A stretch of DNA of 32,000 nt from Xylanibacter ruminicola 23 (lineage in GTDB: Bacteria > Bacteroidota > Bacteroidia > Bacteroidales > Bacteroidaceae). Positions 2,546 through 18,946 of this stretch are shown here, piece after piece. Every line of letters begins with the position of its first letter. The stretch's first letter is position 1. The position numbers and the translations under genes were made by a program. The stretch covers positions 3,330,001 to 3,362,000 of the forward strand of contig NC_014033.1 in NCBI RefSeq assembly GCF_000025925.1, written 5' to 3'. A model generated the notes under the pieces. That model did no database searches and was not told the origin of the DNA. It was given only the letters and a program-made list of their open reading frames with translations.

Positions 2546-3670
2546 ATGGTAAACAATCCTTTTATTCTGTATGGATATGAGTCGGAGGAGTATTTCTGTG
2601 ATCGTCAAGACGAGACGAAGCATCTGCTCCGATTAATAGAGAATGGAAATAATGTTGCATTAATAGCTCCACGTCGAATAGGTAAGACGGGGCTGATAGA
2701 GAATTTATACCATCTAAAGGAGGTTCAGGAGAATTATTATACGTTTCTGATTGATATCTATGCAACTAAGAATATGGAGGATATGGTTATGGCGATGGGT
2801 AGCGCAATGCTTGCATCATTACGGCCTAAAGGTGCTCAGATTATGCAGAAGTTTACAGGCTTCTTGTCTTCTTTACGTAGCGGTATCTCTTTTGATCCTG
2901 CTGGAAATCCGTCGTGGAATGTGGAGATTGGAGATATCAGGATGCCAAGAACAACTTTAGAGGAGATCTTTCACTATATTGAATCGGCTGATAAACCATG
3001 TATTGTTGCTATTGATGAATTTCAGTCGGTTGCAAATTATCCTGATGGTCATGCAGAGGCACTTCTACGAACACATATTCAACATTGTCGCAATGCAAAT
3101 TTTATCTTTGCCGGGTCGCAACGTACCATGATGGCCGAGATATTTAATAGTCCGGCACGTCCGTTTTACCAAAGTGCTTCGATGATGAATCTTGGCTGTA
3201 TTTCAATGGATAAGTATTGCCAGTTTGCTCAGGAGCATTTTTCGAAGGCAGGCAAATCGCTTCCTGCCGATGTGTTCCAGATGGTTTACGAGCGCTTTGA
3301 AGGTATAACCTGGTATGTACAGCGTGTGATGAACGAACTTTTTTCTTTAACGTCTACAGGATCTGCCTGTACGGTGGAGATGATAGATGTGGCTATAGAT
3401 AATATTCTGCGAGCTAACGAATTCAATTATCAATCATTGCTGTTTCAACTGCCACCAAAACAAAAGATGCTGTTAGTGGCTATCTGTAAAGCAGGTAAGG
3501 CCACTGCCTTAACGTCGGCCGATTTTGTTCGTCGCTGGCATCTTCCGTCAACAAGTAGTGTTCAGTCTGCTATAAAGGGGCTGCTCGAAAAGAGTTTTGT
3601 GACAACTTCGCTTGGTGTTTACGAGGTTTACGATAAATTCTTTGCCATGTGGCTCCTCCGTCAATCATAA
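2546..3670 (+). CDS. AAA+/Arch_ATPase-type ATP-binding protein (COG1672-like) with C-terminal winged-helix-like segment
   Basis: 374-aa ORF. Walker A-like APRRIGKTGL and Walker B-like CIVAIDEFQS. The C-terminus (LPPKQKMLLVAICKAGKATALTSADFVRRWHLPSTSSVQSAIKGLLEKSFV) looks like a wHTH. Overall layout is typical of archaeal-ATPase family proteins common in Bacteroidales. Confidence 0.8.
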   Translation: MVNNPFILYGYESEEYFCDRQDETKHLLRLIENGNNVALIAPRRIGKTGLIENLYHLKEVQENYYTFLIDIYATKNMEDMVMAMGSAMLASLRPKGAQIMQKFTGFLSSLRSGISFDPAGNPSWNVEIGDIRMPRTTLEEIFHYIESADKPCIVAIDEFQSVANYPDGHAEALLRTHIQHCRNANFIFAGSQRTMMAEIFNSPARPFYQSASMMNLGCISMDKYCQFAQEHFSKAGKSLPADVFQMVYERFEGITWYVQRVMNELFSLTSTGSACTVEMIDVAIDNILRANEFNYQSLLFQLPPKQKMLLVAICKAGKATALTSADFVRRWHLPSTSSVQSAIKGLLEKSFVTTSLGVYEVYDKFFAMWLLRQS

Positions 3671-3718: not shown

Positions 3719-5239
3719 TTATAAACTTTGTAGGTAGTCATCCCATTGGGTGGGGGAGCCTTTCTGGCCGAACGATTTCTCGTATAGGCGTTCTCGGGTT
3801 GAACTGATTGCTTGCTTGCTTTTATTGAGTAAGTTTGCAACCTTTACGGGAGCAATGTCGATTTTCCTTAACAGGCAAATTTGGCGTTCAGTAGCGCTGA
3901 TATCACATAGATTCTCCAACCTCTCTGTAAAACGTGGATAAACTGTATTGATGACCTGTTCTAATTCCTGCCAGTCTTTATCGGTAATGTTAGGAGCAAA
4001 GGTCATACTGTTATCTGCAAAGTTGTAGAACTTTTTACGAATATCACATTCTTGTATTTGTTTTTTTCTTTCTTCTGATAGGGCTTTCTCTTCCTGTGTT
4101 TGTTGCCATTTCTTTGCCTGTTCTAATATTTCAGATCTCAGACTTTTTGTTTCTTTGTGTTTGGTGTAATACAAATATACAGCAATAAAAATAAACGCAA
4201 GCGTCAGGATGACGAAACAAGCTACTGTAAGATAAAAGTATATGCGTTGATTGCTTTCACGTAGCTCTGCATTCTCTTGTTCCTGTCGCTGATAATTGTA
4301 TAGTGCATTTATCTTGGCAACGGTTGCTGTGTTTGTTGTTTCGTTGATAGAGTCGTTAAGATTCTTATATACTGTTAGATAATGCAATGCTTCTTTTGCT
4401 TGTCCTCGTTTGAGGGCAATTTCGGCCAAGCGCTCATTAGCTGAGCAGCGAGCATATATTGTACCTATTTTTAATAGTTGCTTAGAGTAATATTCGGCAG
4501 AGTCCACCATACCGATGGTCATATAAATATTTGCTGCAGTTGTTAGTACGCCACTGCTGTCAGGGCCATATACGCAGGTTAAAGCTTCGTTTATCTCTGC
4601 TTTTGCTTTTGGGTAATTCTGCAATTTGCAATATAAACCTGCAAGGTTGCTTTTGTTACCATAATACAAATAGTCTATATTTTTTGCTTTTGTCAACTGG
4701 ATTGATTCCTGTAATATCCTTAGGGCCTCATCATATCGTTCATGGTCACTTAGTTCCTTTCCCCAATCTCTCAGGCCATATATCATACCGAGCGTATCTT
4801 TTTGGCTTTTACAGAACTGGTAGGAGCGTTTGAATGCTGCGATGGCCTCTTCTGGTAAGTCTTGGTACGAAAATACATAACCTATCTGGCTATAGATTAC
4901 TCCTTCCAAATCTGGGGTGTCGCTATGTGGTAGGGCTGATACTGCCTTATTGTAATAATGTAGTGACTTTGTGAAATCTCGTCGCTCGTAGAAAACACGA
5001 CCTGCGTAATAACATGCCTCAGCTAATTTCAGTTTACTGCCATGATGTTCATAATAGTCAACTAGCGAAAGTGCTAAAGAGTCAGATTCTGCAATAGGTT
5101 CATCGGCTTTATCTGCCGTTTTAATGCTTTGTAGCTTTTGATACATATCTTTTTCAAGAGAAGAATCCTCCCCCTGACACGAAAATGTAATGACCAATAT
5201 GGTAACGAATATGATGCGTTTTAGCAAATCTAATCTCAT
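3719..5239 (-). CDS. Membrane-tethered regulator: lipoprotein-type signal peptide + extracytoplasmic TPR repeats + single TM helix + coiled coil + C-terminal LuxR/FixJ-like HTH
   Basis: 506-aa ORF. The N-terminus MRLDLLKRIIFVTILVITFSC has a lipobox-like FSC. Residues ~60-300 carry TPR-like repeats rich in A/Y/L (e.g. AEACYYAGRVFYERRDFTKSLHYYNKAV). The TM helix is IYFYLTVACFVILTLAFIFIAVYLYY (residues ~333-358), followed by a K-rich stretch. The C-terminus ISATERQICLLRKIDIAPVKVANLLNKSKQAISSTRERLYEKSF fits the LuxR-type HTH pattern. Confidence 0.8.
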   Translation of the reverse strand: MRLDLLKRIIFVTILVITFSCQGEDSSLEKDMYQKLQSIKTADKADEPIAESDSLALSLVDYYEHHGSKLKLAEACYYAGRVFYERRDFTKSLHYYNKAVSALPHSDTPDLEGVIYSQIGYVFSYQDLPEEAIAAFKRSYQFCKSQKDTLGMIYGLRDWGKELSDHERYDEALRILQESIQLTKAKNIDYLYYGNKSNLAGLYCKLQNYPKAKAEINEALTCVYGPDSSGVLTTAANIYMTIGMVDSAEYYSKQLLKIGTIYARCSANERLAEIALKRGQAKEALHYLTVYKNLNDSINETTNTATVAKINALYNYQRQEQENAELRESNQRIYFYLTVACFVILTLAFIFIAVYLYYTKHKETKSLRSEILEQAKKWQQTQEEKALSEERKKQIQECDIRKKFYNFADNSMTFAPNITDKDWQELEQVINTVYPRFTERLENLCDISATERQICLLRKIDIAPVKVANLLNKSKQAISSTRERLYEKSFGQKGSPTQWDDYLQSL

Positions 5240-5258
5240 AACAATCTTTTTTCGCTTG

Positions 5259-5266
5259 CAAAGGTA
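5259..5266 (-). promoter_or_regulatory. Putative -7 promoter box (TACCTTTG) for the TPR-HTH gene
   Basis: Reverse complement of caaaggta is TACCTTTG, 19 nt upstream of the ATG at 5239. Confidence 0.45.
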
Positions 5267-5313
5267 ATACTTTTATTTCAAAAATTCCCCATTTCATCGA
5301 AATTTTACGGTTT

Positions 5314-5352
5314 TGCGTACAGTACGCAGAAAATGCGTACTCATTTGCGTAC
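5314..5352. promoter_or_regulatory. Array of four TGCGTAC heptamers (one inverted) - candidate operator/activator site in the divergent promoter region
   Basis: TGCGTAC at 5314-5320, GTACGCA at 5322-5328 (together the palindrome TGCGTAC-A-GTACGCA), and TGCGTAC again at 5334-5340 and 5346-5352. The array lies between the two divergent -7 boxes (5259-5266 and 5384-5391). Confidence 0.45.
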
Positions 5353-5383
5353 TAAAAAGTTTGGTTATATGTCATGAGCGTAT

Positions 5384-5391
5384 TAATTTTG
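5384..5391 (+). promoter_or_regulatory. Putative -7 promoter box (TAATTTTG) for the 5417-10806 gene run
   Basis: Exact TAnnTTTG match 25 nt upstream of the ATG at 5417. Confidence 0.45.
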
Positions 5392-5416
5392 CAGCATTAA
5401 ATTTAAAATTTACTGT

Positions 5417-5779
5417 ATGAAGAAATTAATTCCAATTCTATTATTGGCTTTCATAAGTCAAATTTGTTATGCAGAGGACACGCCTAATGGCAATAATGCA
5501 GATGGATATGATAAGGGAGAAAAAGGTCATCCACATAAGGCTCCCATAAAGCCATCTGCCCCACTTATCTCTTATAATCAAGGAGTGTTGTCTGTCTCAA
5601 CCCATAATACATTGTATAATGCAGAGATAATAATTCGTGATATTAATGGTAATATCATATATGATGTTGTTGATACCATCTCAAATGGTTATGTCATACT
5701 CTTGCCAGAATTCGTATCTGCTGAGATGTATCGTTTTGAATTGGTTTATTCAGAGAATCAGATTGTTTTATATTTCTGA
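5417..5779 (+). CDS. Small secreted protein, possibly DUF3244-type beta-sandwich (family assignment from memory, unverified)
   Basis: 120-aa ORF with signal peptide MKKLIPILLLAFISQICYA|ED. A low-complexity linker is followed by a ~75-aa beta-rich C-terminal domain (ISYNQGVLSVSTHNTLYNAEIIIRDINGNIIYDVVDTISNGYVILLPEFVSAEMYRFELVYSENQIVLYF). Confidence 0.65.
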   Translation: MKKLIPILLLAFISQICYAEDTPNGNNADGYDKGEKGHPHKAPIKPSAPLISYNQGVLSVSTHNTLYNAEIIIRDINGNIIYDVVDTISNGYVILLPEFVSAEMYRFELVYSENQIVLYF

Positions 5780-5830
5780 AATAGAATATGGATCCATAGA
5801 GGAAACTCCACAAATTCTATAAATATTAAC

Positions 5831-5853
5831 AATTTTAAAACAAAAGTAAAATG
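5831..5853 (+). repeat. Leader repeat copy 1 (AATTTTAAAACAAAAGTAAAATG) ending in the start codon of mini-protein A
   Basis: Identical except for one extra A to 7340-7363 (AATTTTAAAACAAAAAGTAAAATG). Confidence 0.85.
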
Positions 5854-6075
5854 AAGAAGTTTTTATTGATGCTTGCCATCATGGGAAGCGTAGTTACAAC
5901 TGCTTCGGCTGAAAAGAAAGAGCAGCCCAAAGAAGAATATGTTTATACTTTTCGTGGGCATTGCGAAACTTTGTCGATAACAAAGAGTTTTGATCATGTA
6001 CTTACAGATGCCGAAAAAGCATACTGGAATGGTTATGTGGATGGATTGTGTAATCCTCTACTACATTATTGTTAA
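5851..6075 (+). CDS. Secreted Cys-rich mini-protein A (74 aa precursor, ~54 aa mature), unknown family
   Basis: Signal peptide MKKFLLMLAIMGSVVTTASA|EKKEQPK. The mature part has 3 Cys and ends in HYC-stop. It is a clear paralog of the next ORF. Confidence 0.65.
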   Translation: MKKFLLMLAIMGSVVTTASAEKKEQPKEEYVYTFRGHCETLSITKSFDHVLTDAEKAYWNGYVDGLCNPLLHYC

Positions 6076-6093
6076 ACAATATCTGTGATGGTT

Positions 6094-6309
6094 ATGAAAG
6101 CATTTCTATTATTTCTATTACTAATTCTAGGACTTAATTTTGCTTACGCAGAAAAAAAAGAAGATCCTAAGTCACATTGTTATTTATTTGTTAGCAAGTG
6201 TGATAGATGCTATACAAAGGTTTTTGATCATGAACTATCTGATGCGGAATATGCATATTATCAAGGGTTTTATGATGCGCAATGTGATAAAAACTGGCAT
6301 TACTGTTAA
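6094..6309 (+). CDS. Secreted Cys-rich mini-protein B (paralog of A; ~52 aa mature), unknown family
   Basis: The track ORF starts at GTG 6085. ATG 6094 gives MKAFLLFLLLILGLNFAYA|EKKEDPK. The mature part has 5 Cys and also ends in HYC-stop. Shared pattern with A: TK.FDH.L[ST]DAE.AY..G..D..C....HYC. Confidence 0.65.
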   Translation: MKAFLLFLLLILGLNFAYAEKKEDPKSHCYLFVSKCDRCYTKVFDHELSDAEYAYYQGFYDAQCDKNWHYC

Positions 6310-6333
6310 TTATTTGATTAATCGATTATGTAA

Positions 6334-6341
6334 TAATTTTG
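6334..6341 (+). promoter_or_regulatory. Possible internal -7 box (TAATTTTG) ahead of GLPGLI gene 1
   Basis: Exact TAnnTTTG match, but only 15 nt upstream of the ATG at 6357. It could be a chance match in AT-rich DNA. Confidence 0.25.
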
Positions 6342-6356
6342 TAATTCTATGTTTAT

Positions 6357-7193
6357 ATGAAAAAAAAAGTCATTGTATTATTGCTAGGACTCGCAATAAT
6401 GAATCTATGCTATTCAAAGAATTTTATGGATAAGATGATGTTTCGTTTCGTCTATGACGTACAGGCAAAGGCTTTCGAAAAGAGTACCCGGTTGAATTCT
6501 GATGAACATTGGTTGGATATTGGTGAAAATGGTGTTAGCAAGTACTATAGTAGATGGAAGAATGATTATTGGCATATAAATGATAGTTTAAAAGCAATTG
6601 GCGGTGATTTTAACAGCATACAGCGCGTTGTTCGTGAAAAAGGGATAGAGTCATCACAATTCAACTACTATATCTACAAAAACTATCCTAGTCAGCGACA
6701 TCAAACGGTGGATTACTATTCAATAGAATTATTCCAGTATCAAGAGCCCATGGGGCAGGACTGGGAACTGGCAGAAGGAGATACTACAATTTTGAACCAT
6801 CCCTGCCATAAGGCTGTTTGCAATTATCACGGTAGAACATGGACAGCCTATTATGCCACAGATATCCCCATCTCTGATGGTCCATGGAAGCTCTGTGGGT
6901 TGCCAGGTCTCATATTGAGAGCTTACGATCACGATGGTGCTTTCATTATTAATTGTATCGGCATCCACCAGGAAGTTGGAGGTGAGATAACCATGCGTGA
7001 TGCTAAGAAAAGGAAAATGAAGCCAGAACAAGCGCATAAATTGATAGAACTGATTGATAGCGATCCTGATGCATATATGGAATCGCAAGGTCACAAAAGC
7101 ACGACTTATGATGAGAAGGGCAGACCAATGAAGATGCCTCAGATGCCCAAGCGTGCCTATTACGAAAGTTATTCCTCTGGAGATAAGAAATGA
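6357..7193 (+). CDS. GLPGLI family protein (TIGR01200-type), paralog 1
   Basis: 278-aa ORF with N-terminal signal/lipobox-like MKKKVIVLLLGLAIMNLC. Contains the eponymous motif in DIPISDGPWKLCGLPGLILRAYD. Confidence 0.85.
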   Translation: MKKKVIVLLLGLAIMNLCYSKNFMDKMMFRFVYDVQAKAFEKSTRLNSDEHWLDIGENGVSKYYSRWKNDYWHINDSLKAIGGDFNSIQRVVREKGIESSQFNYYIYKNYPSQRHQTVDYYSIELFQYQEPMGQDWELAEGDTTILNHPCHKAVCNYHGRTWTAYYATDIPISDGPWKLCGLPGLILRAYDHDGAFIINCIGIHQEVGGEITMRDAKKRKMKPEQAHKLIELIDSDPDAYMESQGHKSTTYDEKGRPMKMPQMPKRAYYESYSSGDKK

Positions 7194-7241
7194 GATATAC
7201 GCTGTTGACATTGATGGTGTGGCTGACAGCTATGGTGGTCG
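7159..7241 (+). repeat. 83-bp junction repeat, copy 1 (3' end of a GLPGLI gene + first 52 nt of the TonB-receptor gene)
   Basis: 82/83 identical to 8211-8293 (single G/A difference at 7219 vs 8271), while the two GLPGLI gene bodies are strongly diverged. Confidence 0.9.
7190..7241 (+). pseudogene. 5' relic of the TonB-dependent receptor gene (signal-peptide fragment MRYTLLTLMVWLTAMVV)
   Basis: The ATGA overlap with the GLPGLI-1 stop is exactly as at 8242-8245. The first 17 codons equal the start of the 8242-10806 ORF. Homology then ends, and the frame stops after 29 codons (stop codon 7277-7279). Confidence 0.75.
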
Positions 7242-7324
7242 GATTACGGACACCTTATTTATTTCATCTTGTTTCATGAAACACATTGAACCAAGAAAAA
7301 TTTGGTTGTTTGTGTAGTTTTGCC

Positions 7325-7332
7325 TATCTTTG
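7325..7332 (+). promoter_or_regulatory. Putative -7 promoter box (TATCTTTG) for GLPGLI gene 2 / receptor
   Basis: Exact TAnnTTTG match 58 nt upstream of the ATG at 7391, followed by the conserved leader repeat. Confidence 0.5.
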
Positions 7333-7339
7333 CCCCAGG

Positions 7340-7363
7340 AATTTTAAAACAAAAAGTAAAATG
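7340..7363 (+). repeat. Leader repeat copy 2, ending in a dead start (ATG TGA TGA)
   Basis: AATTTTAAAACAAAAAGTAAAATG matches 5831-5853. Here the ATG (7361-7363) is immediately followed by TGA. Confidence 0.8.
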
Positions 7364-7390
7364 TGATGAATTATTGAAAACTGGATTATT

Positions 7391-8245
7391 ATGAAGCTGT
7401 TATTAATTGGATTAATTCTATTTTGCATCGGAAACAATGCTTTTGGTCAGAAAACAATTTCTGACCAAAAGGTATTGGATACGGTTTCTTATCGCTTTGT
7501 GTACGATGTCCAGGCAAAGGTTTTTGAGAATAGCAATCTAAGGAAATCTGATGAACATTGGTTGGATATTGGGAAAAAAGGTATTAGTTATTATTATAGT
7601 GCTTGGCAAATGAGAAATATCCAAATCCATGATAGCATACGCAATATTGGTGGCTCAATGAATGATGTCTTTCGAGTGAAGTACGAGCAAGGTGTTGAAC
7701 CGTCAAATTTCCTTTATTTCATATTCAAGAATTATCCACTGACAGGGCAGCAGACTGTAGATTATGCGTCGATGGATTTATTCCAATATCAGGAACCGAT
7801 GGATTTGAATTGGAATTTTGTAGAAGGGGATACTATTATTTTGAATCATCCTTGTCAAAAGGCAATCTGCAATTATCATGGTAAAACATGGATTGCATTT
7901 TATGCCACAGATATCCCTATTTCTGATGGTCCTTGGAAATTATCAGGGTTGCCCGGGCTTATTCTCAGGGCTTACGACCTTTCCGACTCGTTCTTGTTTA
8001 ACTGTGTAGGCATCTATCAGAATGTAGGAGGAATTATTGCAATGATGCGTTCTAATAGAAAGATAACTACTCCTCAAAAAGTACATGAGACGACAAGAGA
8101 AATAGAAAAGGATCCCAATGCATATATGAAAGCAAAAGGCCAAAATGTCACAACGCTCGATGAAAAGGGGCGCCCTATCAATTTGGGTAAGATTCTGTCG
8201 AATATGGCTCATTACGAAAGTTATTCCTCTGGAGATAAGAAATGA
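7391..8245 (+). CDS. GLPGLI family protein, paralog 2
   Basis: 284-aa ORF with a signal peptide ending in NNAFG|QK (N-terminus MKLLLIGLILFCIGNNAFG) and the motif DIPISDGPWKLSGLPGLILRAYD. By eye it is ~55-60 percent identical to paralog 1. Its stop overlaps the next start (ATGA at 8242-8245). Confidence 0.85.
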   Translation: MKLLLIGLILFCIGNNAFGQKTISDQKVLDTVSYRFVYDVQAKVFENSNLRKSDEHWLDIGKKGISYYYSAWQMRNIQIHDSIRNIGGSMNDVFRVKYEQGVEPSNFLYFIFKNYPLTGQQTVDYASMDLFQYQEPMDLNWNFVEGDTIILNHPCQKAICNYHGKTWIAFYATDIPISDGPWKLSGLPGLILRAYDLSDSFLFNCVGIYQNVGGIIAMMRSNRKITTPQKVHETTREIEKDPNAYMKAKGQNVTTLDEKGRPINLGKILSNMAHYESYSSGDKK

Positions 8246-8293
8246 GATATACGCTGTTGACATTGATGGTATGGCTGACAGCTATGGTGGTCG
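8211..8293 (+). repeat. 83-bp junction repeat, copy 2 (functional GLPGLI/receptor junction)
   Basis: See 7159-7241. Confidence 0.9.
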
Positions 8294-10806
8294 AGGCCCA
8301 AACATCTTTTTCGGGACGTGTTGTTGCTGAAGGTTCGAAAAAGGGGTTGGGCTGGGCCAGTGTAGTGGCCGAGGATGGTAACCATAAGCCCGTGGCATTT
8401 GCTAGAACTAAGGAGGATGGCACCTTTGAACTGAAGGTGCAGGCAGGCAAGGAACCGGCATGGCTATCGTTCTCGTTGCTCAGCTATGCAAAAAAAACGA
8501 TTGCTGTAGCTGATTATCGCAATGGTCAGACCGTAAAAATGCGCGAAGAGGCACTAATGCTGAAGGAGGTAAAAGCCACCTCGAAGCGATTGGTTCGACG
8601 TAGCGATACGTTGGTATATAGCGTGGCAGGATTCCGCCATAAGCAAGACAGATCCATAGCCGACGTCATTGCTAAAATGCCTGGGCTTGAAGTAAAGCAG
8701 GATGGCTCTATCCAGTATCAGGGCAAGCCCATCAACGAGTTTTATATTGGAGGCATGAACCTGATGGGCAACAACTACTCGCTGGCCAGCGAGAATATCA
8801 ATGCCAACAAGGTGAAGAATGTAGAGGTTCTTACCAACCATCAGAAGGTGAAGGCCCTGCGTGGTGTGCAATTCTCCGACCAGGCTGCACTGAATCTTGT
8901 ATTAGAAGAAGATGCCAAGAATACCTGGTTGGGATTGGTGGAGACAGGAGTGGGAACCACATTGCAACAGAACGAGACCGACCGTCTGCTGCGCGACGGG
9001 CGCCTGATGGCCATGATGTTTGGAGGTAAGATGCAGAGCCTGTCGATGTATAAATGGAATAATACAGGTAAAAACATCAAACGAGAGATACGCGACCTGC
9101 AAAACACCATCGCCGACATCAGTAGTGCCAAAAGCATGATTAATAGTGTTGGACTGAGTGCCCCTGGCCTGATGCAGGAACGCTATACGATGAACGACTC
9201 CCGACTGCTGGCTACCAACTGGCTGCGTAAGGCTGGTAAGGATGCCACCATCAGGTTCCAGCTCAATGGCTTTATCGACAATACCGAGGGTAATCGCTAC
9301 TCAGAAACCACCTACTCGGATGTGATGGGTGGTGCCATCATCACAGAGGAAGCCAATGGCGAGAATCGGCAGAGCCAATGGAAAGGTGAATTGAAATATG
9401 AGCGCAATGGAGAAAAACTGTTTGTTACAAATGTATTGAGCGGCTATATGGATTTCGACAAGAGCTGGGCTACGACATACACAAACGGTCAGGTTCTGCG
9501 ACAAGAGGCTGCACCCAAAGAACGCTGGGTGGGCGACCATCTGGAAATCGTGAAGGCCTTGGGTAATGACCGTGTGCTGCGACTGAATGCCAGTGGCTTT
9601 ATCGCCTATCTGCCTGGTATGCTGCTACTGGCCGACAGTACTAGCCAGAATGTCGATCAGCATGCCACCCAATTGCGTGTAGGGGCCTCATTCCGCCATA
9701 AACTATTTGGTAAACTGTATGTTTCATATAAAACAGGTGTTGACTACGATGACGAGCGTTTCGCACTTAGTTGCCATCAACAGCCTACACAGCGCAACAG
9801 CTATCAACAGTTCAGCTGGTATCTGCAGCCATCATTCAATATCAAACGTAATGATCTGGAGCTTACGGCATCGCTGCCATTCAGATTAATCAATCGCCAC
9901 TTTGGTAATGAAAACAACACGCAGGGCATACTAACGCCAACAATAAACATTCATTATCAGCTGCTTAGCGAACTGGCTGTTATTGCCAGCTATAACTACA
10001 ACTGGCAGCCCGCCTCGTTAGAGGATATGACGGCAGTTCCTGTTTACAGCAGCTATCGAAGCTATAGTACAGGTATCGGCAGTCTCTATGCCCAAAACAG
10101 TCAGAATGGCAATCTGAAGTTTGAATACAGTAACCCTGTGATAGGTTTGTTTGGCCATATCCAGGCCACCTTGTTATATCAGGACAATCAGCCTCTTTAC
10201 AACAGCCAGTTGGACGGCATTTTCTACCATAGTAGCCCGTCGGGACAGTTCTACGACAATACCACATGGATGCTTTCCGGCCGTCTCAGCAAATCACTCG
10301 GCACTATGAAATTTATTACAGCCATCGACGGTAATCTGTCGAGCCGACGCTCCACCACCATGATGAGCGGGCTACTACTACCTTACCGTCTCGACAGCTA
10401 TCGTTGCGGCATCAGTTTCTCTTTGCGCCCGGCACAGACGCTGTCTTTCGAGGAAGAGAGTCATTATCAGTACAGCTGTCAGAAATTCAACAGCATTCAG
10501 TTGTCGGATAGCCGTGCCTTGCGTTCGTTTACCCATACTTTGAAGAGCTACTACATGCCAGGTAACTGGCAGATAGAATGGACCAACGAGATGTATCATA
10601 GTAACGACCATTCCGTATCGTTCACCTATTTCTCCGACCTGCAGGTGTCATACCGCACCAAAAAGCATGAGTTTGGTGTAAAGGTAGGTAATATCTTCGG
10701 CAACAAGGATTACGAACGCAGATACATCTACACCAATTACACCAGTTACACGATGAACCGCTTGCGCCCAAGAGAAATCCTATTGAAGGCTAGTTTTGAT
10801 CTGTAA
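8242..10806 (+). CDS. TonB-dependent receptor-like outer-membrane protein (CarboxypepD_reg domain + plug + large beta-barrel)
   Basis: 854-aa ORF with signal peptide MRYTLLTLMVWLTAMVVEA|Q. CarboxypepD_reg-like segment: FSGRVVAEGSKKGLGWASVVAEDGNHKPVAFARTKEDGTFELKV. TonB-box-like LKEVKATSK. Plug-like segment: DRSIADVIAKMPGLEVKQDGSIQYQGKPINEFYIGGMNL. The remainder is long, Y/S/N-rich and barrel-like. No SusD-like partner is present. Confidence 0.85.
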   Translation: MRYTLLTLMVWLTAMVVEAQTSFSGRVVAEGSKKGLGWASVVAEDGNHKPVAFARTKEDGTFELKVQAGKEPAWLSFSLLSYAKKTIAVADYRNGQTVKMREEALMLKEVKATSKRLVRRSDTLVYSVAGFRHKQDRSIADVIAKMPGLEVKQDGSIQYQGKPINEFYIGGMNLMGNNYSLASENINANKVKNVEVLTNHQKVKALRGVQFSDQAALNLVLEEDAKNTWLGLVETGVGTTLQQNETDRLLRDGRLMAMMFGGKMQSLSMYKWNNTGKNIKREIRDLQNTIADISSAKSMINSVGLSAPGLMQERYTMNDSRLLATNWLRKAGKDATIRFQLNGFIDNTEGNRYSETTYSDVMGGAIITEEANGENRQSQWKGELKYERNGEKLFVTNVLSGYMDFDKSWATTYTNGQVLRQEAAPKERWVGDHLEIVKALGNDRVLRLNASGFIAYLPGMLLLADSTSQNVDQHATQLRVGASFRHKLFGKLYVSYKTGVDYDDERFALSCHQQPTQRNSYQQFSWYLQPSFNIKRNDLELTASLPFRLINRHFGNENNTQGILTPTINIHYQLLSELAVIASYNYNWQPASLEDMTAVPVYSSYRSYSTGIGSLYAQNSQNGNLKFEYSNPVIGLFGHIQATLLYQDNQPLYNSQLDGIFYHSSPSGQFYDNTTWMLSGRLSKSLGTMKFITAIDGNLSSRRSTTMMSGLLLPYRLDSYRCGISFSLRPAQTLSFEEESHYQYSCQKFNSIQLSDSRALRSFTHTLKSYYMPGNWQIEWTNEMYHSNDHSVSFTYFSDLQVSYRTKKHEFGVKVGNIFGNKDYERRYIYTNYTSYTMNRLRPREILLKASFDL

Positions 10807-10909
10807 GTATTAGTTGTCATCTATATTCTAATTTATCTGATAGAGACTATTTGAGTGGTGCCTCATATACCCCATTATCACCAGTTGTAGTGATAAAAAG
10901 ATGTTAAAT

Positions 10910-10955
10910 ACTAAAAATTTAGTTGATAAAATTTGGAACTACTAAATATTTAGTA
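10910..10955. promoter_or_regulatory. Two palindromic operators (ACTAAA-N2-TTTAGT) upstream of the blaI-like gene
   Basis: ACTAAAAATTTAGT at 10910-10923 and TACTAAATATTTAGTA (perfect 16-nt palindrome) at 10940-10955. Centres are 31 bp apart. The second abuts the -7 box at 10956-10963. Confidence 0.5.
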
Positions 10956-10963
10956 TATATTTG
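10956..10963 (+). promoter_or_regulatory. Putative -7 promoter box (TATATTTG) for blaI/blaR1/tlpA-like genes
   Basis: Exact TAnnTTTG match. It lies 8 nt before ATG 10972 and 26 nt before ATG 10990, which favours 10990 as the start. Confidence 0.5.
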
Positions 10964-10989
10964 CCGGCGGAATGATAAACCTAAGCATT

Positions 10990-11376
10990 ATGAAGGAGAA
11001 AAAGAAGCAACTAACCAAGGCCGAGACGCAGGTGATGAACATCCTGTGGAGTTTGCCAGAACAGCAGGGCTTTATTCAGGACATCATCGATCGCTATCCT
11101 GAACCCAAACCTGCCTACACTACTATCCTGACGTTTATGAAGATTCTTACAGACAAGGGATTTGTAAAGCCTGAAAGGGTAGGCAAGGCCAATCGTTTTT
11201 CGCCGTTGGTAAGCAAGGACGATTACACCTACTCGTTTATCAGCGATGTAAAGGATACTTTTTTTGATGGCTCATTCACATCGCTTGTCAGCTTCTTTGC
11301 CAAAAAGGAGCAATATACCGACGAGGAGTTGGCAGAACTGAAGGAATTGATGACAAAAATCGAGTCGAAACGATGA
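10990..11376 (+). CDS. BlaI/MecI/CopY-family transcriptional repressor
   Basis: The track ORF is 10972-11376; I prefer the ATG at 10990 (MKEKKKQLTKAETQVMNILW...). The winged-helix pattern LTKAETQVMNILW...IQDIIDRYPEPKPAYTTILTFMKILTDKGFV is typical of the family. Its stop overlaps the next start (ATGA at 11373-11376). Confidence 0.8.
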   Translation: MKEKKKQLTKAETQVMNILWSLPEQQGFIQDIIDRYPEPKPAYTTILTFMKILTDKGFVKPERVGKANRFSPLVSKDDYTYSFISDVKDTFFDGSFTSLVSFFAKKEQYTDEELAELKELMTKIESKR

Positions 11377-12614
11377 TAACGGCATTTCTGTTATATATAG
11401 GTAAGGTGGCGATACTGTTGGCAGTGTTCTATCTGTTTTATCGCCTATTGATGGAACGTGAGACTTTTCATCGCTTTAATCGTGCCATCCTGCTTTTGTC
11501 GTTCTTGATAGCCTTTATCCTTCCGCTGTGCGAAATCACCCTGCACAAAACGGTTGTGGCTGCATCTACGTCTGCATCCGGGTCTAATGTTGCAGCTGGT
11601 GTTGTATCGGATATTCCCTCTGTAACTTACGGTAATCCCCTTCTATGGCTATTCGTTATCTATCTTGTAGGCGTAGTATTAAAACTGCTCCATACCGCCA
11701 TCAGCATCTATCGTTTGAACAAGTTGATTAACCAATGCGAGCAGCACCCGCAAGCAGATGGTACCACCATTGCCGTTTGCGCTCAGAATATTGCTCCGTT
11801 CAGTTGGTGGAACACCATTGTGTTTTCGCGTCGCGACTATCAATTACAGGATTCGGCCCTCTTGGTTCATGAGCGGGCACATATCAATAGCTATCACTCC
11901 TTCGATCTGTTGCTGATGGAGTTGGCGATTGCCCTGCAGTGGTTTAACCCTGCCATCTGGCTCACAGGTAGAGAGTTACGTGCCGTTCATGAGTACGAGG
12001 CCGATGCCAGTGTGCTTTCGGGTGGTGTAGATGCACACCACTATCTGAACCTGCTGATGGATAGGGCCAATGCCAAGTTGGAGTGTAAGTTGGCTAATGC
12101 CATCAGTCAGCAAACGCTGAAGAACCGTTTTCAGATGATGGCGCGTCATCGCTCCAAGCCTTCACGATTGCTCAAGGTGCTGTATCTGCTCCCCGTTGTA
12201 GCCATCACCTTAGCCCTGAATGCTCAGACGATTATTCACTATCAGGCACCTGAACCCGCTCCCAGCCATCCTGTTGCTGATACCATTCAGCCCCCTGCGT
12301 CACAGAAGGTGGCACCAGACCCTGAGGTTAAGCCATATAAACAGCAAAGCACTCAAAAGACGGAACCTCAGCCAGAAACCGCATTGCTGACGATTTCAGG
12401 AACGGTAGTTGACGAAGAAGGTAATCCCTTGTTAGGTACAGCTGTAAAGGAACATGACGGTGCAACAGGTACGATTACTGATTTTGATGGTAAATTCTCG
12501 CTCAAAGTACCCAAAGGCACTGTGGTAGATTTTCTGAATATAGGCGTGGCCACAGTCTCCATACAGGTAAAGAGCGATATGACTGACCAGAAGATAATTA
12601 TGAAACAAGAATAA
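11373..12614 (+). CDS. BlaR1-like M56 family membrane metallopeptidase/signal transducer fused to a C-terminal CarboxypepD_reg-like domain
   Basis: 413-aa ORF with several N-terminal TM helices. HExxH in LLVHERAHINSYHSFD and a downstream EYEAD. A Pro-rich linker (APEPAPSHPVADTIQPPASQKVAPDPEVKP) precedes ISGTVVDEEGNPLLGTAVKEHDGATGTITDFDGKFSLKVPKGT. Confidence 0.85.
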   Translation: MITAFLLYIGKVAILLAVFYLFYRLLMERETFHRFNRAILLLSFLIAFILPLCEITLHKTVVAASTSASGSNVAAGVVSDIPSVTYGNPLLWLFVIYLVGVVLKLLHTAISIYRLNKLINQCEQHPQADGTTIAVCAQNIAPFSWWNTIVFSRRDYQLQDSALLVHERAHINSYHSFDLLLMELAIALQWFNPAIWLTGRELRAVHEYEADASVLSGGVDAHHYLNLLMDRANAKLECKLANAISQQTLKNRFQMMARHRSKPSRLLKVLYLLPVVAITLALNAQTIIHYQAPEPAPSHPVADTIQPPASQKVAPDPEVKPYKQQSTQKTEPQPETALLTISGTVVDEEGNPLLGTAVKEHDGATGTITDFDGKFSLKVPKGTVVDFLNIGVATVSIQVKSDMTDQKIIMKQE

Positions 12615-12631
12615 CTTAACCAATAAAAGTA

Positions 12632-13726
12632 ATGAGTATGAAAAAAGTTTTTGTGATGATGGCAGTGTTGTTGGCATCAGTAACCGCATCTGCTAATGAC
12701 AACTTTAAGTTGACAGGTAAAATTGATGGTGCAAGCAATGATACGCTCTGCATCGAGTATACTATTTTGCAGCCTCAGAAACAGCACATGGTGCATAAGG
12801 TGGCTGTAAAGGCTGGTGAGTTTTTGTTCCACGCCAATCTGAAAGAGGCTTATTCGGCTAAAATGTATTTAAAGACGAATCCCAAAGAGAGTCTTTATTT
12901 CTATTTGGTTCCTGATGAGGAGGCTGTCTTTAGTGGCAGTCTTAATTCGGTAGACGAGCATTGGAGTGGTAGTACATTCTATCAGCAGTACGAACGAATA
13001 ACTGAACTCCAACGTCCTTTTAATATTGAGTTTGTGGCTGCTCGAAATGATCCTGATAGCATAAGGGGGGAGAAAAACCGTGATATCAATAGGCGCGCAC
13101 ATTCTGTATATATGAAATACATAGAGGAACATCCCGACGAGGATGCCACGGCAACTTTGATTGTTTATGTAGGTTACGAGCAGGTGTTGCCTGCTATGGC
13201 CAAGTTGACTCCGGAAGTTCGCAATGGCAGAATGAAAAGCGATTTGGATAGCTTGGAGAGAATGTTTAAGCAAGTGCTGAAAGAGGCGGCTGCACGCAAA
13301 GCCGTTAAGAACGATACTGTTACAATAGGCACTCAAGTACCAGAACTTGGGTTGAAAGATTTGCAGGGAAATGTGTTGGAATTGAAATCGCTTCGTGGTA
13401 AATATGTAGTGCTCGATTTCTGGGGCTCGTGGTGTACCTGGTGTATCAAAGGGTTCCCCAAACTAAAGGAGTACTACGCCAAATATAAGGATCGCCTTGA
13501 GATTGTGGGCATCGACTGTAACGATACTGCCGAAAAGTGGGCTGCTGCTGTTAAGAAACACAATCTGCCTTGGCTGCAGGTAAGAAGCGAGGATGGCATT
13601 ACAGAGGATAGATTCAGAATAAAGGGCTATCCTTATAAGGTGCTGATCTCGCCCGAAGGCATTGTGCTCAATGCCTACCTAGGCGAAACCGCCGATTTCT
13701 ACCAGTATTTAGATACCGCCCTTTAA
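12632..13726 (+). CDS. TlpA-family thiol-disulfide oxidoreductase (N-terminal DUF4369-like domain + thioredoxin fold)
   Basis: 364-aa ORF with signal peptide MSMKKVFVMMAVLLASVTASA and the thioredoxin CxxC in VVLDFWGSWCTWCIKGFPKL. Confidence 0.85.
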   Translation: MSMKKVFVMMAVLLASVTASANDNFKLTGKIDGASNDTLCIEYTILQPQKQHMVHKVAVKAGEFLFHANLKEAYSAKMYLKTNPKESLYFYLVPDEEAVFSGSLNSVDEHWSGSTFYQQYERITELQRPFNIEFVAARNDPDSIRGEKNRDINRRAHSVYMKYIEEHPDEDATATLIVYVGYEQVLPAMAKLTPEVRNGRMKSDLDSLERMFKQVLKEAAARKAVKNDTVTIGTQVPELGLKDLQGNVLELKSLRGKYVVLDFWGSWCTWCIKGFPKLKEYYAKYKDRLEIVGIDCNDTAEKWAAAVKKHNLPWLQVRSEDGITEDRFRIKGYPYKVLISPEGIVLNAYLGETADFYQYLDTAL

Positions 13727-13819
13727 GTTGATGGTATGGCTCAACATGTTCTGATTATAAGAAGATTGGAGAACGAATATATTAAGACGAATGACAAATT
13801 CCTATTAGTGGAACGCAGT

Positions 13820-13885
13820 GTTCCCAGGTTGGGAACAAAACATTCCCAGGTTGGGAATGAAACGTTCCCAAGTTGGGAAAAAATG
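13820..13885. repeat. Three exact-phase 22-bp tandem repeats, each containing the dyad TTCCCA-N3-TGGGAA
   Basis: Units: GTTCCCAGGTTGGGAACAAAAC (13820-13841), ATTCCCAGGTTGGGAATGAAAC (13842-13863) and GTTCCCAAGTTGGGAAAAAATG (13864-13885). A half-unit GGAAC at 13810-13814 precedes them with the same 5-nt spacing. Confidence 0.9.
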
Positions 13886-13937
13886 AAGCGCTTTTGGTGG
13901 CGAGGGTTGTAGTATTAGTTGGCGTTTCTTTTGAAAC

Positions 13938-14200
13938 TTTTGCAAAAAAATCTCTCATCTCTCCCTCAATCTCTCAAAACCCGCATAAACACAGGTGGTT
14001 TGAGCGATGAGAGATTTTTCGCATCCCTCCCTCATCTCTCATGTATCTCTCCCTATAGCATGAGAGATGTAGGGAGGGATTAGGGAGGGAAAAGGGAGAG
14101 ATTAAGAAAATCTCCACCCTCTCGAAATGCCTGTGTACAAAGGCTTTTCGGAAGATTGAGGGAGAGATGGCTGTTTTTACAGAGAAATTATTTGCAAAAA
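13938..14200. repeat. CT/GA-rich nested inverted-repeat element (MITE-like relic or structured RNA; function unknown)
   Basis: Outer 17-nt perfect IR: CATCTCTCCCTCAATCT (13956-13972) with AGATTGAGGGAGAGATG (14153-14169). Middle IR: ACACAGG (13989-13995) with CCTGTGT (14130-14136). Inner IR: ATCCCTCCCTCATCTCTCATG (14023-14043) with CATGAGAGATGTAGGGAGGGAT (14059-14080), with one bulge. Both ends carry TTTGCAAA(A/T)AA (13939-13949 and the complement of 14190-14200). Confidence 0.7.
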
Positions 14201-14319
14201 TTATCTCCGTTACCTCTTCTTTACCTATCTTGGCTTTGATGATATAAACACCTTTAGGCCAGCCTGCGGTAGAGATGGTGGTAGAGTGCTATATGTCAGG
14301 GACCAGTCCCGTGGCATAG

Positions 14320-14338
14320 ATAGGCTATCGCTAAATAT
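14320..14338. repeat. Direct repeat flanking the ATPase gene, left copy (ATAGGCTATCGCTAAATAT)
   Basis: Matches 15800-15817 (ATAGGCTATCGCAAATAT) with one indel. CCGTGGCAT also occurs next to both copies (14309-14317 and 15836-15844). Confidence 0.8.
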
Positions 14339-14382
14339 CTTCGAGAGATAACGTTATTAAATTGAGATGGTATGATCCAAAA

Positions 14383-15645
14383 TCAGATGCTGGCAAAGAT
14401 GCTACTCTTTGTTTCTAACTCTGAAAGACTAAGTTTTTTAGGGTTCCTTTTAATTTCGGCAGCAATACCAGTGTGCTCAAATTCATTGAGGGCAATCATA
14501 TCTATCTCATTCTCACCTTTACGATTCCACCAATTCCCCACTATCGTATATTGCCCCGATTCCATAGCTTGTTGTTGAAAGAACTGTTCAAGTGTACGCC
14601 CTGTAAACTGTTCATAACCTTTCCCCATATTCTGTCGCAACAAGGAAAGTTGCTGGCGTTCCACAAGTGCCTGATATGGCCACACAAAGCGGAACCAGAA
14701 ACGTAGGAACTGGTCGGAAATCTCGTAAGCACTGGTTTTGCTGTTAGGTTTGGCCAGTAGGGGTTTTAGACGCGAGATGATGTTATAGTTGTTTTCAAGA
14801 TTCTGGATGAAAGTACCCATATCCTTTTGCATTGCGCCGTCTATATCCGAACGCCTGGTCATACCTCCCGCTATTAGCTGGAGAATAGAAAAGTATGTGC
14901 TACTCTCATCGCCAAACTCCTGAATCATCAGATCGCGACCCTCTGAGAGAAAATAAGAATCCTGCCTGCATACAAAGTTTAGCATTTTCTCCTTTGTATA
15001 ACATCCTGCATCCATCAAAAGCTCTACGTATTTTGCCACTCCACCAGTAATCATATAGAGGCAAAGCAAGTCCTCATTGTTATAATGCGGGTGATGGTCG
15101 CCGAATATCTGCTTCAGTACATTAATAGAGAAAGGTAACAGTGTGAATTTTGAGGTGGGGCGTCCATAGAGCGGTTCGTTTCTATCTTCGAAGATACGTT
15201 TCATCAACGAACGGATACTACCCATCGTTATCAGGTTAATATGTGAGTCACGATGATACCTGTCCCAAATGTCTTGCATCTCACTAAAGATGGCTGGATT
15301 TACTTTATAGAAGTTCTGAAACTCATCAAAAACAATAGAAAAATGGCGATGTACCGATTCTCTCATAATAACCTCGAACACATCACGGAAGTGCGACAAT
15401 CGACCATATACCTGTATACCTACCTGTTCCTGGAGTGTTTGCTGAAACTTATGGCAAAGCATGGCTTCGCTATCTTTCGCCACAAAAAGATAAGCAAACT
15501 GGCACCCCTCCAAGGCTTTTATCACAAGCGACGTTTTACCAACTCGGCGTCTACCCATCAGTACTGTAAACACAGCATGCTGTTCGGCCTGCTTCTCATT
15601 CTGCTTCAGAATCTCCATCTCTGCTTTGCGATCATAAAACTTCAT
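14383..15645 (-). CDS. Arch_ATPase-type ATP-binding protein with C-terminal DUF234 / PD-(D/E)xK nuclease-like module
   Basis: 420-aa ORF. Walker A GRRRVGKTS and Walker B-like SIVFDEFQN. The C-terminal WWNRKGENEIDMIALNEFEHTGIAAEIKRN supplies a D...E.K signature. Confidence 0.85.
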   Translation of the reverse strand: MKFYDRKAEMEILKQNEKQAEQHAVFTVLMGRRRVGKTSLVIKALEGCQFAYLFVAKDSEAMLCHKFQQTLQEQVGIQVYGRLSHFRDVFEVIMRESVHRHFSIVFDEFQNFYKVNPAIFSEMQDIWDRYHRDSHINLITMGSIRSLMKRIFEDRNEPLYGRPTSKFTLLPFSINVLKQIFGDHHPHYNNEDLLCLYMITGGVAKYVELLMDAGCYTKEKMLNFVCRQDSYFLSEGRDLMIQEFGDESSTYFSILQLIAGGMTRRSDIDGAMQKDMGTFIQNLENNYNIISRLKPLLAKPNSKTSAYEISDQFLRFWFRFVWPYQALVERQQLSLLRQNMGKGYEQFTGRTLEQFFQQQAMESGQYTIVGNWWNRKGENEIDMIALNEFEHTGIAAEIKRNPKKLSLSELETKSSIFASI

Positions 15646-18778: not shown

Positions 18779-18871
18779 GGAAAAGTGCGAAAAAAGTGTG
18801 ATTTTTTAGTGGTTGAAACAAAATAAAAAGTAAATGTAACATGAGGATAAGCCACTTTCGAAAAAATACAC

Positions 18872-18879
18872 TAACTTTG
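18872..18879 (+). promoter_or_regulatory. Orphan -7-like box (TAACTTTG) inside the GH10/GH95 spacer
   Basis: Exact TAnnTTTG match with no ORF downstream before the terminator at 18947-18991. Confidence 0.3.
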
Positions 18880-18946
18880 CACCCAGATAAAATAAAGAAT
18901 CGGTTAAAATTGTTTTAGTTATATTAGTAGTTAGTAGTTTTTCCTT

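Follow-up and report, generated by a model that had tools for sequence, protein, structure and literature searches.

The locus described here occupies positions 3719-13726 of a 32,000-nt window of Xylanibacter ruminicola 23 DNA (GCF_000025925.1, NC_014033.1, positions 3,330,001-3,362,000 of the forward strand; the window is the whole stretch that was analysed, and positions are counted from its start). It is a variant of TonB-dependent uptake or signalling systems, with an unrecognised partner family (GLPGLI), a putative signalling arm of the BlaR/BlaI type, and a new family of small proteins. At its core, gene arrangement across relatives shows a GLPGLI protein and an outer-membrane barrel bearing a CarboxypepD_reg-type N-terminal extension (NTE) to be encoded as an obligate and, judging by the overlap of their genes, translationally coupled pair. 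We propose that the locus as a whole is an inducible, composite system of the envelope, arranged around this TonB-dependent transporter, in which three transcription units would be linked in function and separately controlled; taken as a whole, the model has in our judgement an even chance of being correct. The ten open reading frames (ORFs) that an earlier note on this DNA had described were found at the same coordinates, and each was checked by Pfam and NCBIfam family scans (Table 1).

The GLPGLI-transporter pair

The barrel family contains more than 438 clusters. We compared 80 genome loci, with barrel identities of 33-98%, which span Prevotellaceae, Bacteroidaceae, Muribaculaceae, and Porphyromonas; 75 of them have upstream DNA. 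A GLPGLI gene lies directly 5' of the barrel gene in 74 of these 75, the gap between the two genes is 30 nt or less in 68 loci, and the exact 4-nt ATGA overlap is present in 23. In the window, direct reading of the sequence confirmed the start/stop overlap of this kind that had been noted at 8242-8245. One to six tandem GLPGLI copies are found per barrel locus, and the pair occurs in such unrelated contexts as housekeeping genes (L013; numbers of this form denote homologous genome or metagenome stretches used for comparison) and defence-type islands (L001, L011). A Pfam census of the neighbours at the 80 loci revealed no universal third gene. TonB-like genes (CarbopepD_reg plus TonB_C) directly precede GLPGLI in L165 and L115. 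At the upper end of the copy-number range, L018 (159-5111) has six tandem GLPGLI paralogues before one barrel gene, which appears to be split or frameshifted.

Both GLPGLI paralogues of the window, recognised as such in the earlier note, pass the 50-bit cutoff of TIGR01200/PF09697 (Porph_ging) by a wide margin, aligning to model positions 2-226 and 2-228 of 229. They are 54% identical to each other and carry the signatures CGLPGLILRA and SGLPGLILRA, with G186-L-P-G-L190 invariant in 38 homologues. In Foldseek, the AlphaFold model of the second paralogue (predicted local distance difference test score, pLDDT, 92.6) gave its best matches to the PNGase F-II bowl domain, which is N-terminal in that enzyme (4r4z at E 1.7e-9, and 7zgn), and then to LolA/LolB/VioE. 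The LolA/LolB matches have E values of 1.5e-4 to 1e-2 at 4-9% identity, and no LolA/LolB match was obtained by sequence search. Both structures were also reached by a GLPGLI profile search, and 7zgn was deposited under the name "Glpgli family protein". Single-sequence PDB searches with GLPGLI, the barrel, and the DUF3244-like protein described below gave no useful match. Since the signal peptide ends in A-x-A/Q without a lipobox in most homologues, we infer that GLPGLI is a soluble envelope protein processed by signal peptidase I, and not a lipoprotein. A GLPGLI protein has been detected in the outer-membrane vesicle proteome of Tannerella. A full-text literature search on GLPGLI (TIGR01200) returned four mentions, all incidental, and nothing informative came from one on what the bowl domain of PNGase F-II does.

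The earlier description of the barrel as a CarboxypepD_reg/plug/barrel receptor holds for the CarbopepD_reg_2 domain and for the predicted overall fold; the Plug match falls below the Pfam cutoff. The AlphaFold model (pLDDT 85.3) matched PirA, OprC, FpvA, and FecA in Foldseek at E 3e-17 to 1e-15, and by prediction the protein is a TonB-dependent transporter with a plug in a 22-strand barrel. The segment D122-T-L-x-Y-S-V128 is invariant or nearly so in 42 homologues and resembles TonB boxes of the DTLVVTA type. The NCBIfam SusC/RagA model TIGR04056 (cutoff 368 bits) was not matched. Because both Pfam and NCBIfam transporter thresholds were failed, the barrels appear to form a divergent clade. 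The barrel profile did match the N-terminus of a SusC homologue (5e-6), a resemblance that is confined to the NTE.

In the proposed mechanism, GLPGLI would be a soluble periplasmic carrier or adaptor of the LolA kind that docks to the transporter and passes on to it, or receives from it, cargo of a bulky and probably hydrophobic or peptide-like kind; a wider range of cargo would come with tandem paralogues. GLPGLI is a large Bacteroidota family without an assigned function, and its pairing with a transporter clade turns the nature of the cargo and the direction of its movement into a concrete biochemical question.

Table 1. Positions of the genes and candidate control sites of the locus
Feature	Position	Strand	Description
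TPR regulator	3719-5239	-	putative one-component envelope regulator, 506 aa; TPR_12 and TPR_2 matches; lipoprotein signal with Cys21; extracytoplasmic TPR ~60-300; transmembrane segment ~333-358 (window 4166-4243); coiled coil, cytoplasmic; putative LuxR-like helix-turn-helix at the C-terminus, ~440-490
TGCGTAC heptamers	5314-5352		four copies: one inverted pair, then two direct copies 12 bp apart; candidate regulator site
Putative operon promoter	5360-5391	+	-33 TTTG 5360-5363; -7 TAATTTTG 5384-5391; 20-bp spacer; directly 3' of heptamers
DUF3244-like protein	5417-5779	+	secreted, Ig-fold, 120 aa; HKAP motif; usually accompanies the regulator
Mini-protein 1	5851-6075	+	74 aa; signal-peptidase-I site ASA/E; mature ~53 aa; Cys38 and Cys67 conserved; FDH; C-terminal HYC
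Mini-protein 2	6088-6309	+	74 aa; ORF opens with GTG 6085; start ATG 6088 or 6094; five Cys in mature part
GLPGLI paralogue 1	6357-7193	+	278 aa; TIGR01200 160.0 bits
GLPGLI paralogue 2	7391-8245	+	284 aa; TIGR01200 159.7 bits; signal-peptidase-I site AFG/Q; stop overlaps barrel start
Barrel	8242-10806	+	TonB-dependent-transporter-like, outer membrane, 854 aa; NTE residues 23-110; DTLxYSV 122-128; plug; barrel
Putative blaI control region	10909-10963	+	operator 1 TACTAAAAATTTAGT 10909-10923; -33 TTTG 10932-10935; operator 2 TACTAAATATTTAGTA 10940-10955; -7 TATATTTG 10956-10963
BlaI	10972-11376	+	BlaI/MecI-family winged-helix repressor; Penicillinase_R 98.3 bits (cutoff 22.6)
M56 protein	11373-12614	+	membrane metalloprotease; HERAH; C-terminal CarbopepD_reg_2; start overlaps blaI stop by 4 nt
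TlpA-like protein	12632-13726	+	secreted TlpA/ResA-like thiol-disulfide oxidoreductase; DUF4369 and thioredoxin fold; WCTWC; signal peptide

The envelope regulator and the mini-protein genes

The genes from the DUF3244-like protein to the barrel form a co-directional run, divergent from the regulator gene, exactly as had been claimed. The regulator was described before as a lipoprotein-anchored TPR protein with one transmembrane helix, and this description is borne out by the TPR matches and by ten homologues, all of which share the lipobox cysteine, the TPRs, a single transmembrane helix, the coiled coil, and the C-terminal domain. The LuxR-type helix-turn-helix (HTH) assigned to that last domain fared less evenly. 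The C-terminal profile of the family matches only LuxR/NarL-type HTH domains in the PDB, consistently and weakly (EvgA, PdeL, VraR, EL222, and EsrB; E 0.03-1.8), and the Pfam LuxR-HTH models do not detect it even at E 5.

The regulator scores below the cutoffs of the two related families, DUF6377 (21.1 bits against 36.7, with weak matches in three of the ten homologues) and BT3442_fam (NF053779; 93.7 bits over residues 60-397 against an equivalog cutoff of 940); by sequence it is a relative of BT3442 and not an orthologue. DUF6377 proteins are annotated as regulators within polysaccharide utilisation loci, and SusR has been described as a regulator that senses the periplasm; the likeness of the window regulator to SusR is one of topology. 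In B. thetaiotaomicron, the MACPF cluster BT_3442-3433 opens with BT_3442 and, after it, BT_3441, a homologue of DUF3244 (PMC2954219). The corresponding protein of the window reaches 22.4 bits with DUF3244 (PF11589; E 1.2e-4, model positions 18-92 of 96; Pfam cutoff 25). Eight of nine homologues match this family, the best at 2.5e-7, and PDB 3sd2, a DUF3244 structure, matches at E 0.26. We regard the DUF3244 protein as a probable habitual co-factor of the regulator.

The array of TGCGTAC heptamers that had been noticed in the shared promoter region was confirmed by counting: four copies lie within 39 bp and two in the remaining ~32 kb, with three expected per window. The Bacteroides promoter consensus is TTTG / TAnnTTTG, and on this basis the boxes next to the array are the putative promoter of the 5417-10806 operon; the array, beside the -33 box, is by sequence in the position expected of an activator site. 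The same array is present at four regulator-linked promoters of close relatives (L005, L015 twice, and L095), with changed spacers. More distant regulators have each their own direct repeats of 7-11 nt at the equivalent position, just 5' of a TAnnTTTG box, in seven independent relatives; these repeats include AATTTAGACCT (three copies, L070), TGCAAACT (two copies, L034, L027, and L028), TTTGTGAAGT (two copies, L055), and TTTGCAAAG (L065). We suggest that the regulator is a SusR-like, lipid-anchored one-component activator whose TPR domain would sense a periplasmic cue, and that by binding the TGCGTAC repeats just 5' of the -33 box it would turn on the genes of the DUF3244 protein, the mini-proteins, GLPGLI, and the barrel. 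The locus-specific repeats are testable operators for the whole SusR-like regulator family.

Relatives of the regulator mostly lack a mini-protein nearby and adjoin other cargo, including serpins, BspA-type leucine-rich repeat (LRR) proteins, glycoside hydrolase (GH) family 2 enzymes, and MACPF proteins. Tandem-serpin proteins (~840-860 aa, with two serpin domains each) and one BspA-type LRR protein were observed in this position (L122 4404-6920, L133 4389-6926, L169 7104-9686, and L104 2639-4117). In L015 (9844-13551), a second regulator-DUF3244 cassette lies downstream of the barrel gene in place of the BlaI, M56, and TlpA-like genes; it is followed by an 82-aa Gly/Ala-rich, bacteriocin-like secreted peptide (12164-12412) and polytopic membrane proteins.

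The two mini-proteins had been described as paralogous and secreted; signal peptides were seen in both, and they are 49% identical. Neither has a family in Pfam or NCBIfam, and their profile gave no useful match in the PDB. The family is tiny, at 11 clusters in 5.8 billion proteins, and a profile search of 1.84 billion representatives gave 23 matches, one of them false. This was P0255, a 1149-aa repeat protein, which was rejected as a repeat-driven false positive. Features common to the family are a near-identical signal peptide, a charged spacer, a beta-strand, Cys38, the FDH motif, an amphipathic helix, and Cys67; His49 is near-invariant. One relative, P0257, starts with MVMKAF. A hidden Markov model (HMM) found 28 copies in the sequence examined, and all 28 lie directly 5' of a GLPGLI gene. 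This adjacency holds at L013 and where the barrel is just 34-46% identical (L069, L070, L074, and L078). At other loci the same slot is filled by look-alikes without cysteines or by other small secreted ORFs. The proposal that the mini-proteins keep company with GLPGLI is upheld by all 28 copies; among the regulator clusters, only L097/98 have a mini-protein. Mini-protein/GLPGLI/barrel modules were also observed among defence-type genes (AAA_15/AAA_21 with RloB, AbiH, DUF2971, and Peptidase_M78) in L001 (643-3022 and 8527-10610) and L011 (3468-11144).

The ratio of nonsynonymous to synonymous substitution rates (dN/dS) of mini-protein 1 is 0.09-0.13 against its orthologues in L001 and L009. 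Because it is ~0.1 between type-1 orthologues, the mini-proteins are, on sequence grounds, real genes under purifying selection. Among close strains, the mini-protein genes are an optional cassette that is replaced, fused, or lost. Between the window and L005, which carries a third mini-protein type, the flanks have a dS of 0.02-0.04 and the mature mini-protein a dN of 0.63, i.e., the allele was replaced; in L015, types 1 and 2 are joined in a chimeric gene, and L095, with a barrel 99% identical, has no mini-protein. We suggest that the mini-proteins are Sec-exported, one-disulfide, strain-variable optional accessories of the GLPGLI-transporter pair. That they are exchangeable ligands or cargo-presenting proteins handled by this pair is a tentative proposal, somewhat short of probable. 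They are a family of small proteins so far without annotation, whose genes turn over like cassettes in rumen Prevotellaceae; this bears on strain competition and niche adaptation.

The BlaI-M56-TlpA-like trio and the alternative readings

Downstream of the barrel, a BlaI-like repressor with two palindromic operators, an M56 protein, and a CxxC oxidoreductase of the TlpA type had been recognised, and the family matches and motifs are as described. Both palindromes are perfect or near-perfect and bracket the putative promoter of the trio, whose boxes we place at 10932-10963. BlaI scores far below the cutoffs of the specific BlaI/MecI exception models. Since the -7 box ends 8 nt before ATG 10972 and the MecI/BlaI models align from residue 7, the true start of blaI is probably ATG 10990. 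The M56 protein (Peptidase_M56, 41.6 bits against a cutoff of 31) shares with the barrel, as had been claimed, a CarboxypepD_reg-type domain (CarbopepD_reg_2, 36.9 bits; positions 2-73 of the SusC/RagA model at 62.9 bits), 32% identical to that of the barrel N-terminus. A penicillin-binding, class D beta-lactamase-like sensor was not found at its C-terminus, and the blaR1_generic score is 28.8 bits against a cutoff of 400. Relatives have the architectures M56+TonB_C, M56+CarbopepD_reg+TonB_C, and M56+2xCarbopepD_reg, compared with M56+CarbopepD_reg in the window; M56-TonB fusions have been noted in B. thetaiotaomicron and called uncharacterised (PMC10350073). The oxidoreductase matches Thioredoxin_8 (59 bits) and AhpC-TSA (58 bits) and does not reach the ResA/TlpA equivalog cutoffs; by sequence it resembles TlpA without being its orthologue. 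In at least five regulator clusters, the TlpA-like gene is followed by that of a conserved secreted TPR protein of ~329 aa (e.g., L165 9705-10694 and L113 10610-11596), and a 797-aa thioredoxin protein was observed in L125.

Because the operators bracket the trio's own promoter, the demonstrable target of BlaI is blaI-M56-tlpA; the earlier note had given the trio a promoter and operators of its own, and candidates for both were located. BlaI would repress its own operon through the two palindromes. The M56 protease would read the transporter/TonB interface through its NTE-type domain (TonB_C in relatives) and then cleave BlaI, and this cleavage would induce the TlpA-like oxidoreductase, giving a surface-signalling relay comparable to FecA/FecR and assembled from BlaR/BlaI parts. 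The recurrence beside transporters of M56 fused to TonB_C or NTE domains suggests BlaR/BlaI-based cell-surface signalling in Bacteroidota.

Whether the parts belong together, as the earlier note had supposed, can be judged from relatives. The full layout (regulator, then DUF3244, mini-protein, GLPGLI, and barrel) recurs beyond this genome: it was seen in five lineages or more (L097/98, L069, L070, and L074), where barrel identity falls as low as 34-54%. L097/98 have the divergent layout of the window, with a regulator 50-52% and a barrel 54% identical; at L069 and L074 divergent regulators were identified by hhalign. A metagenome scan seeded with the regulator gave 38 clusters, of which 14 have GLPGLI beside the regulator, 11 a TlpA-like gene, 6 DUF3244, and 5 BlaI plus M56. 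Gene orders in these clusters are shuffled: with A for the TPR regulator, E for GLPGLI, G for the barrel, H for BlaI, I for M56, and J for the TlpA-like gene, H-I-A-E-J, A-J-E-E-G, E-E-G-A-J, and A-E-E-E-G-H-I were found, the last in L140, whose BlaI is 84% identical to that of the window. BlaI-M56 directly follows the barrel, in an operon arrangement, in L022, L030 (with overlapping stop and start codons), and L036, and precedes GLPGLI-barrel in L023. Because order is shuffled and neighbourhood preserved, a functional linkage of the regulator, DUF3244, GLPGLI, barrel, BlaI/M56, and TlpA-like genes is supported at the level of gene content, the associations being facultative.

Several points weigh against the composite model. 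All parts of the locus are described here from sequence and predicted structure, and the periplasmic location of GLPGLI is a prediction from its signal peptide. The TM-scores of the barrel to solved transporters are just 0.3-0.5, its Plug score is 16.9 against a Pfam cutoff of 23.9, and TonB_dep_Rec is unmatched. At the 80 barrel loci, unrelated genes of the housekeeping or island kind make up most of the nearest neighbours, with regulators and TlpA facultative; since these genomes are rich in TlpA-like genes, a certain amount of adjacency would arise by chance. By HMM, mini-proteins occur at 8 of the 80 GLPGLI-barrel loci and are missing from ~90%, as well as from the near-identical L095. The window M56 protein lacks the TonB_C domain of its relatives. 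Finally, a search for a BlaI operator 5' of 5417-10806 gave just a half-site with three mismatches (5350-5364), no better than chance, and BlaI may control only its own trio.

A further reading, which we think unlikely, is a trans-envelope pathway not described before, in which the small, strain-specific mini-proteins, locked by a disulfide, would be protein ligands (shuttles, signals, or antagonists) that are caught at the transporter and handed to GLPGLI as a periplasmic LolA-like carrier, with M56 sensing the transporter/TonB interface by its NTE or TonB_C domain, reporting occupancy, cleaving BlaI, and inducing a dedicated oxidoreductase. If true, such a ligand-capture pathway would give first functions to GLPGLI, DUF3244, the M56-TonB fusions, and the mini-protein family.

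It is quite unlikely that the locus serves competition between strains. In this reading the mini-proteins would be disulfide-stabilised, bacteriocin-like toxins, the GLPGLI-transporter pair a receptor or immunity allele or else a route of export or uptake, and the regulator with DUF3244 an antagonism switch. The mini-protein region is indeed a hot spot, with the replacement, chimera, and loss described above, a duplication, and a GC content that falls to 34-37% over 5-8 kb of the window compared with 45-52% around it. The same regulator-DUF3244 cassette heads the B. thetaiotaomicron MACPF (pore-former) cluster, and in L015 it precedes the Gly/Ala-rich secreted peptide and polytopic membrane proteins; in L001-L004 and L011 the modules lie among defence or island genes (AAA_15, RloB, and AbiH). 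For the Bacteroidales MACPF toxin BSAP-1, the target gene adjoins the toxin gene. However, between the window and L005 the barrel (99%) and the second GLPGLI (98%) stay constant while the mini-protein allele changes, and type-1 mini-proteins (dN 0.13-0.17) are more conserved than the neighbouring GLPGLI (0.35) and barrel (0.20-0.22). An immunity gene is not apparent and a signal for export across the outer membrane is lacking, and no similarity of the mini-proteins to known bacteriocins was found in Pfam, NCBIfam, or the PDB profile search.

We consider it distinctly improbable that the regulator with its operon, the BlaI-M56-TlpA operon, and the flanking ATPase genes are three independent units brought together in a variable island, the trio being unrelated to the transporter. 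The separate promoter and operators of the trio, the lack of an operator 5' of 5417, the different cassette 3' of the barrel in the closest genome, L015, and the mostly heterogeneous neighbours of the 80 barrel loci agree with mere coincidence. Yet BlaI-M56 adjoins GLPGLI-barrel in the four loci named above (L022, L023, L030, and L036), lies 3.3 kb away in L025, and co-occurs in different orders in L105, L113, L115, L140/141, and L163. Moreover, the sensor domains of the M56 proteins are of the TonB_C or transporter-NTE types, i.e., domains of the TonB/transporter interface, and a TlpA-like gene adjoins the regulator or GLPGLI in 11 of the 38 clusters compared with ~1 by chance (an estimate that holds if ~1% of genes are TlpA-like).

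An autoinducer circuit, in which the TPR ectodomain would sense the secreted mini-proteins by an RRNPP-like logic at the envelope with positive feedback on their own operon, is highly improbable: although the operon most likely activated by the regulator has the mini-protein genes as its first small genes, their products pair a conserved leader with a divergent mature part, much as pherotype peptides do, and the five-part layout recurs in L097/98, L069, L070, and L074, the TPR variant is the same in L005, L015, and L095 despite a type 3 mini-protein, a type 1/2 chimera, and no mini-protein, respectively, 24 of the 38 regulator clusters have no adjoining GLPGLI, only L097/98 have a mini-protein, and the topology of the regulator is SusR-like and not that of RRNPP proteins. 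Sensing of the mini-proteins by the TPR ectodomain, proposed in the earlier note, is not supported, as the sensor shows no co-variation with the type of mini-protein. The RRNPP/pherotype idea was rejected on this test, and the RRNPP analogy is not supported either: the lipobox and the transmembrane helix place the TPRs outside, and the putative HTH is C-terminal. In the composite model, the mini-proteins would not be the cognate signal of the TPR sensor.

Around the locus, two AAA ATPase genes of the ATPase_2/DUF234 type form brackets (2546-3670, plus strand, and 14383-15645, minus strand), and these and the low GC content suggest a variable island. Closest to this genome is a metagenome-assembled genome of Xylanibacter (Prevotella) ruminicola. 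Further downstream, 16598-29432 is a xylan-type polysaccharide utilisation cluster that comprises a GH10-esterase fusion (16598-18778), GH95 (19047-21512), GH3 with PA14 (21543-24128), and a hybrid two-component regulator (25428-29432, minus strand). The non-coding segment after the TlpA-like gene (13736-14380) has two adjacent GGGAA/TTCCC hairpins and a terminator-like score on the minus strand at 13841-13879. An Rfam scan of the window and seven loci for a riboswitch or other RNA that might reveal a substrate yielded only a tRNA and one DUF805b motif, which lies in L033 (4832-4870; 38.8 bits, above the gathering score) directly 5' of a small secreted ORF that precedes GLPGLI. A sigma-70 promoter and terminator scan of the window performed no better than on shuffled sequence, the model being ill-suited to Bacteroidota.

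Comparison with known systems

Like the RRNPP receptors (Rap, NprR, PlcR, and PrgX), the regulator would combine TPRs and an HTH in a single protein, and genes of small secreted peptides are close by. RRNPP proteins, however, reside in the cytoplasm, carry the HTH at the N-terminus, and recognise peptides that have been imported and processed, whereas the TPRs of the window protein are predicted to be extracytoplasmic behind a lipobox, its putative HTH is at the C-terminus, and co-variation of sensor and peptide is absent. With the SusR, DUF6377, and BT3442 regulators it shares the order of a periplasmic TPR-type sensor, a single transmembrane segment, and, by prediction, a C-terminal HTH, and a gene beside the operon that it would control; as with BT_3442, a DUF3244 gene (BT_3441 in that case) follows. 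Its cargo is GLPGLI and a transporter rather than a starch or MACPF cluster, and its family scores lie below the cutoffs.

The HasA-HasR and HmuY-HmuR pairs likewise have a small secreted protein encoded directly beside a TonB-dependent transporter, which makes a capture-and-return logic plausible for the mini-proteins. These are, in contrast, ~53 aa long, optional, and hypervariable, and have no sequence or predicted fold similarity to HasA or HmuY.

The M56 and BlaI proteins resemble BlaR1/BlaI and MecR1/MecI of Staphylococcus and Bacillus in the M56 HExxH motif, the Penicillinase_R repressor, the overlapping genes, and two palindromic operators over the promoter, which imply autoregulation; they differ in a CarboxypepD_reg sensor in place of a penicillin-binding one, in the operator (ACTAAAnnTTTAGT), and in the regulated product, a TlpA-like oxidoreductase. 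The likeness to FecA-FecR-FecI, as read from the genes, would consist of a transporter with an N-terminal extension, a membrane protein with a periplasmic domain suited to transporter or TonB contact, and proteolysis as the likely output. The relay of the window would, however, use an M56 protease and BlaI and not an anti-sigma factor and an extracytoplasmic function sigma factor, and the extension is an Ig-like CarboxypepD_reg domain, not STN.

The predicted fold of GLPGLI is that of LolA/LolB and of the PNGase F-II bowl domain. GLPGLI differs from LolA/LolB in having an added C-terminal helical region and no detectable sequence homology, and its partner is a transporter rather than LolCDE. 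SusC/SusD and RagA/RagB, finally, share with the locus an NTE-bearing TonB-dependent barrel, its tight pairing with a dedicated partner, and a local envelope regulator. The barrel of the window, at 854 aa, fails TIGR04056, and the locus has neither carbohydrate-active enzymes nor peptidases. Whereas the SusD-type partner is encoded downstream of its barrel, is lipidated, and has a TPR-like fold, GLPGLI is encoded upstream, would be processed by signal peptidase I, and is predicted to adopt a LolA-like half-barrel.

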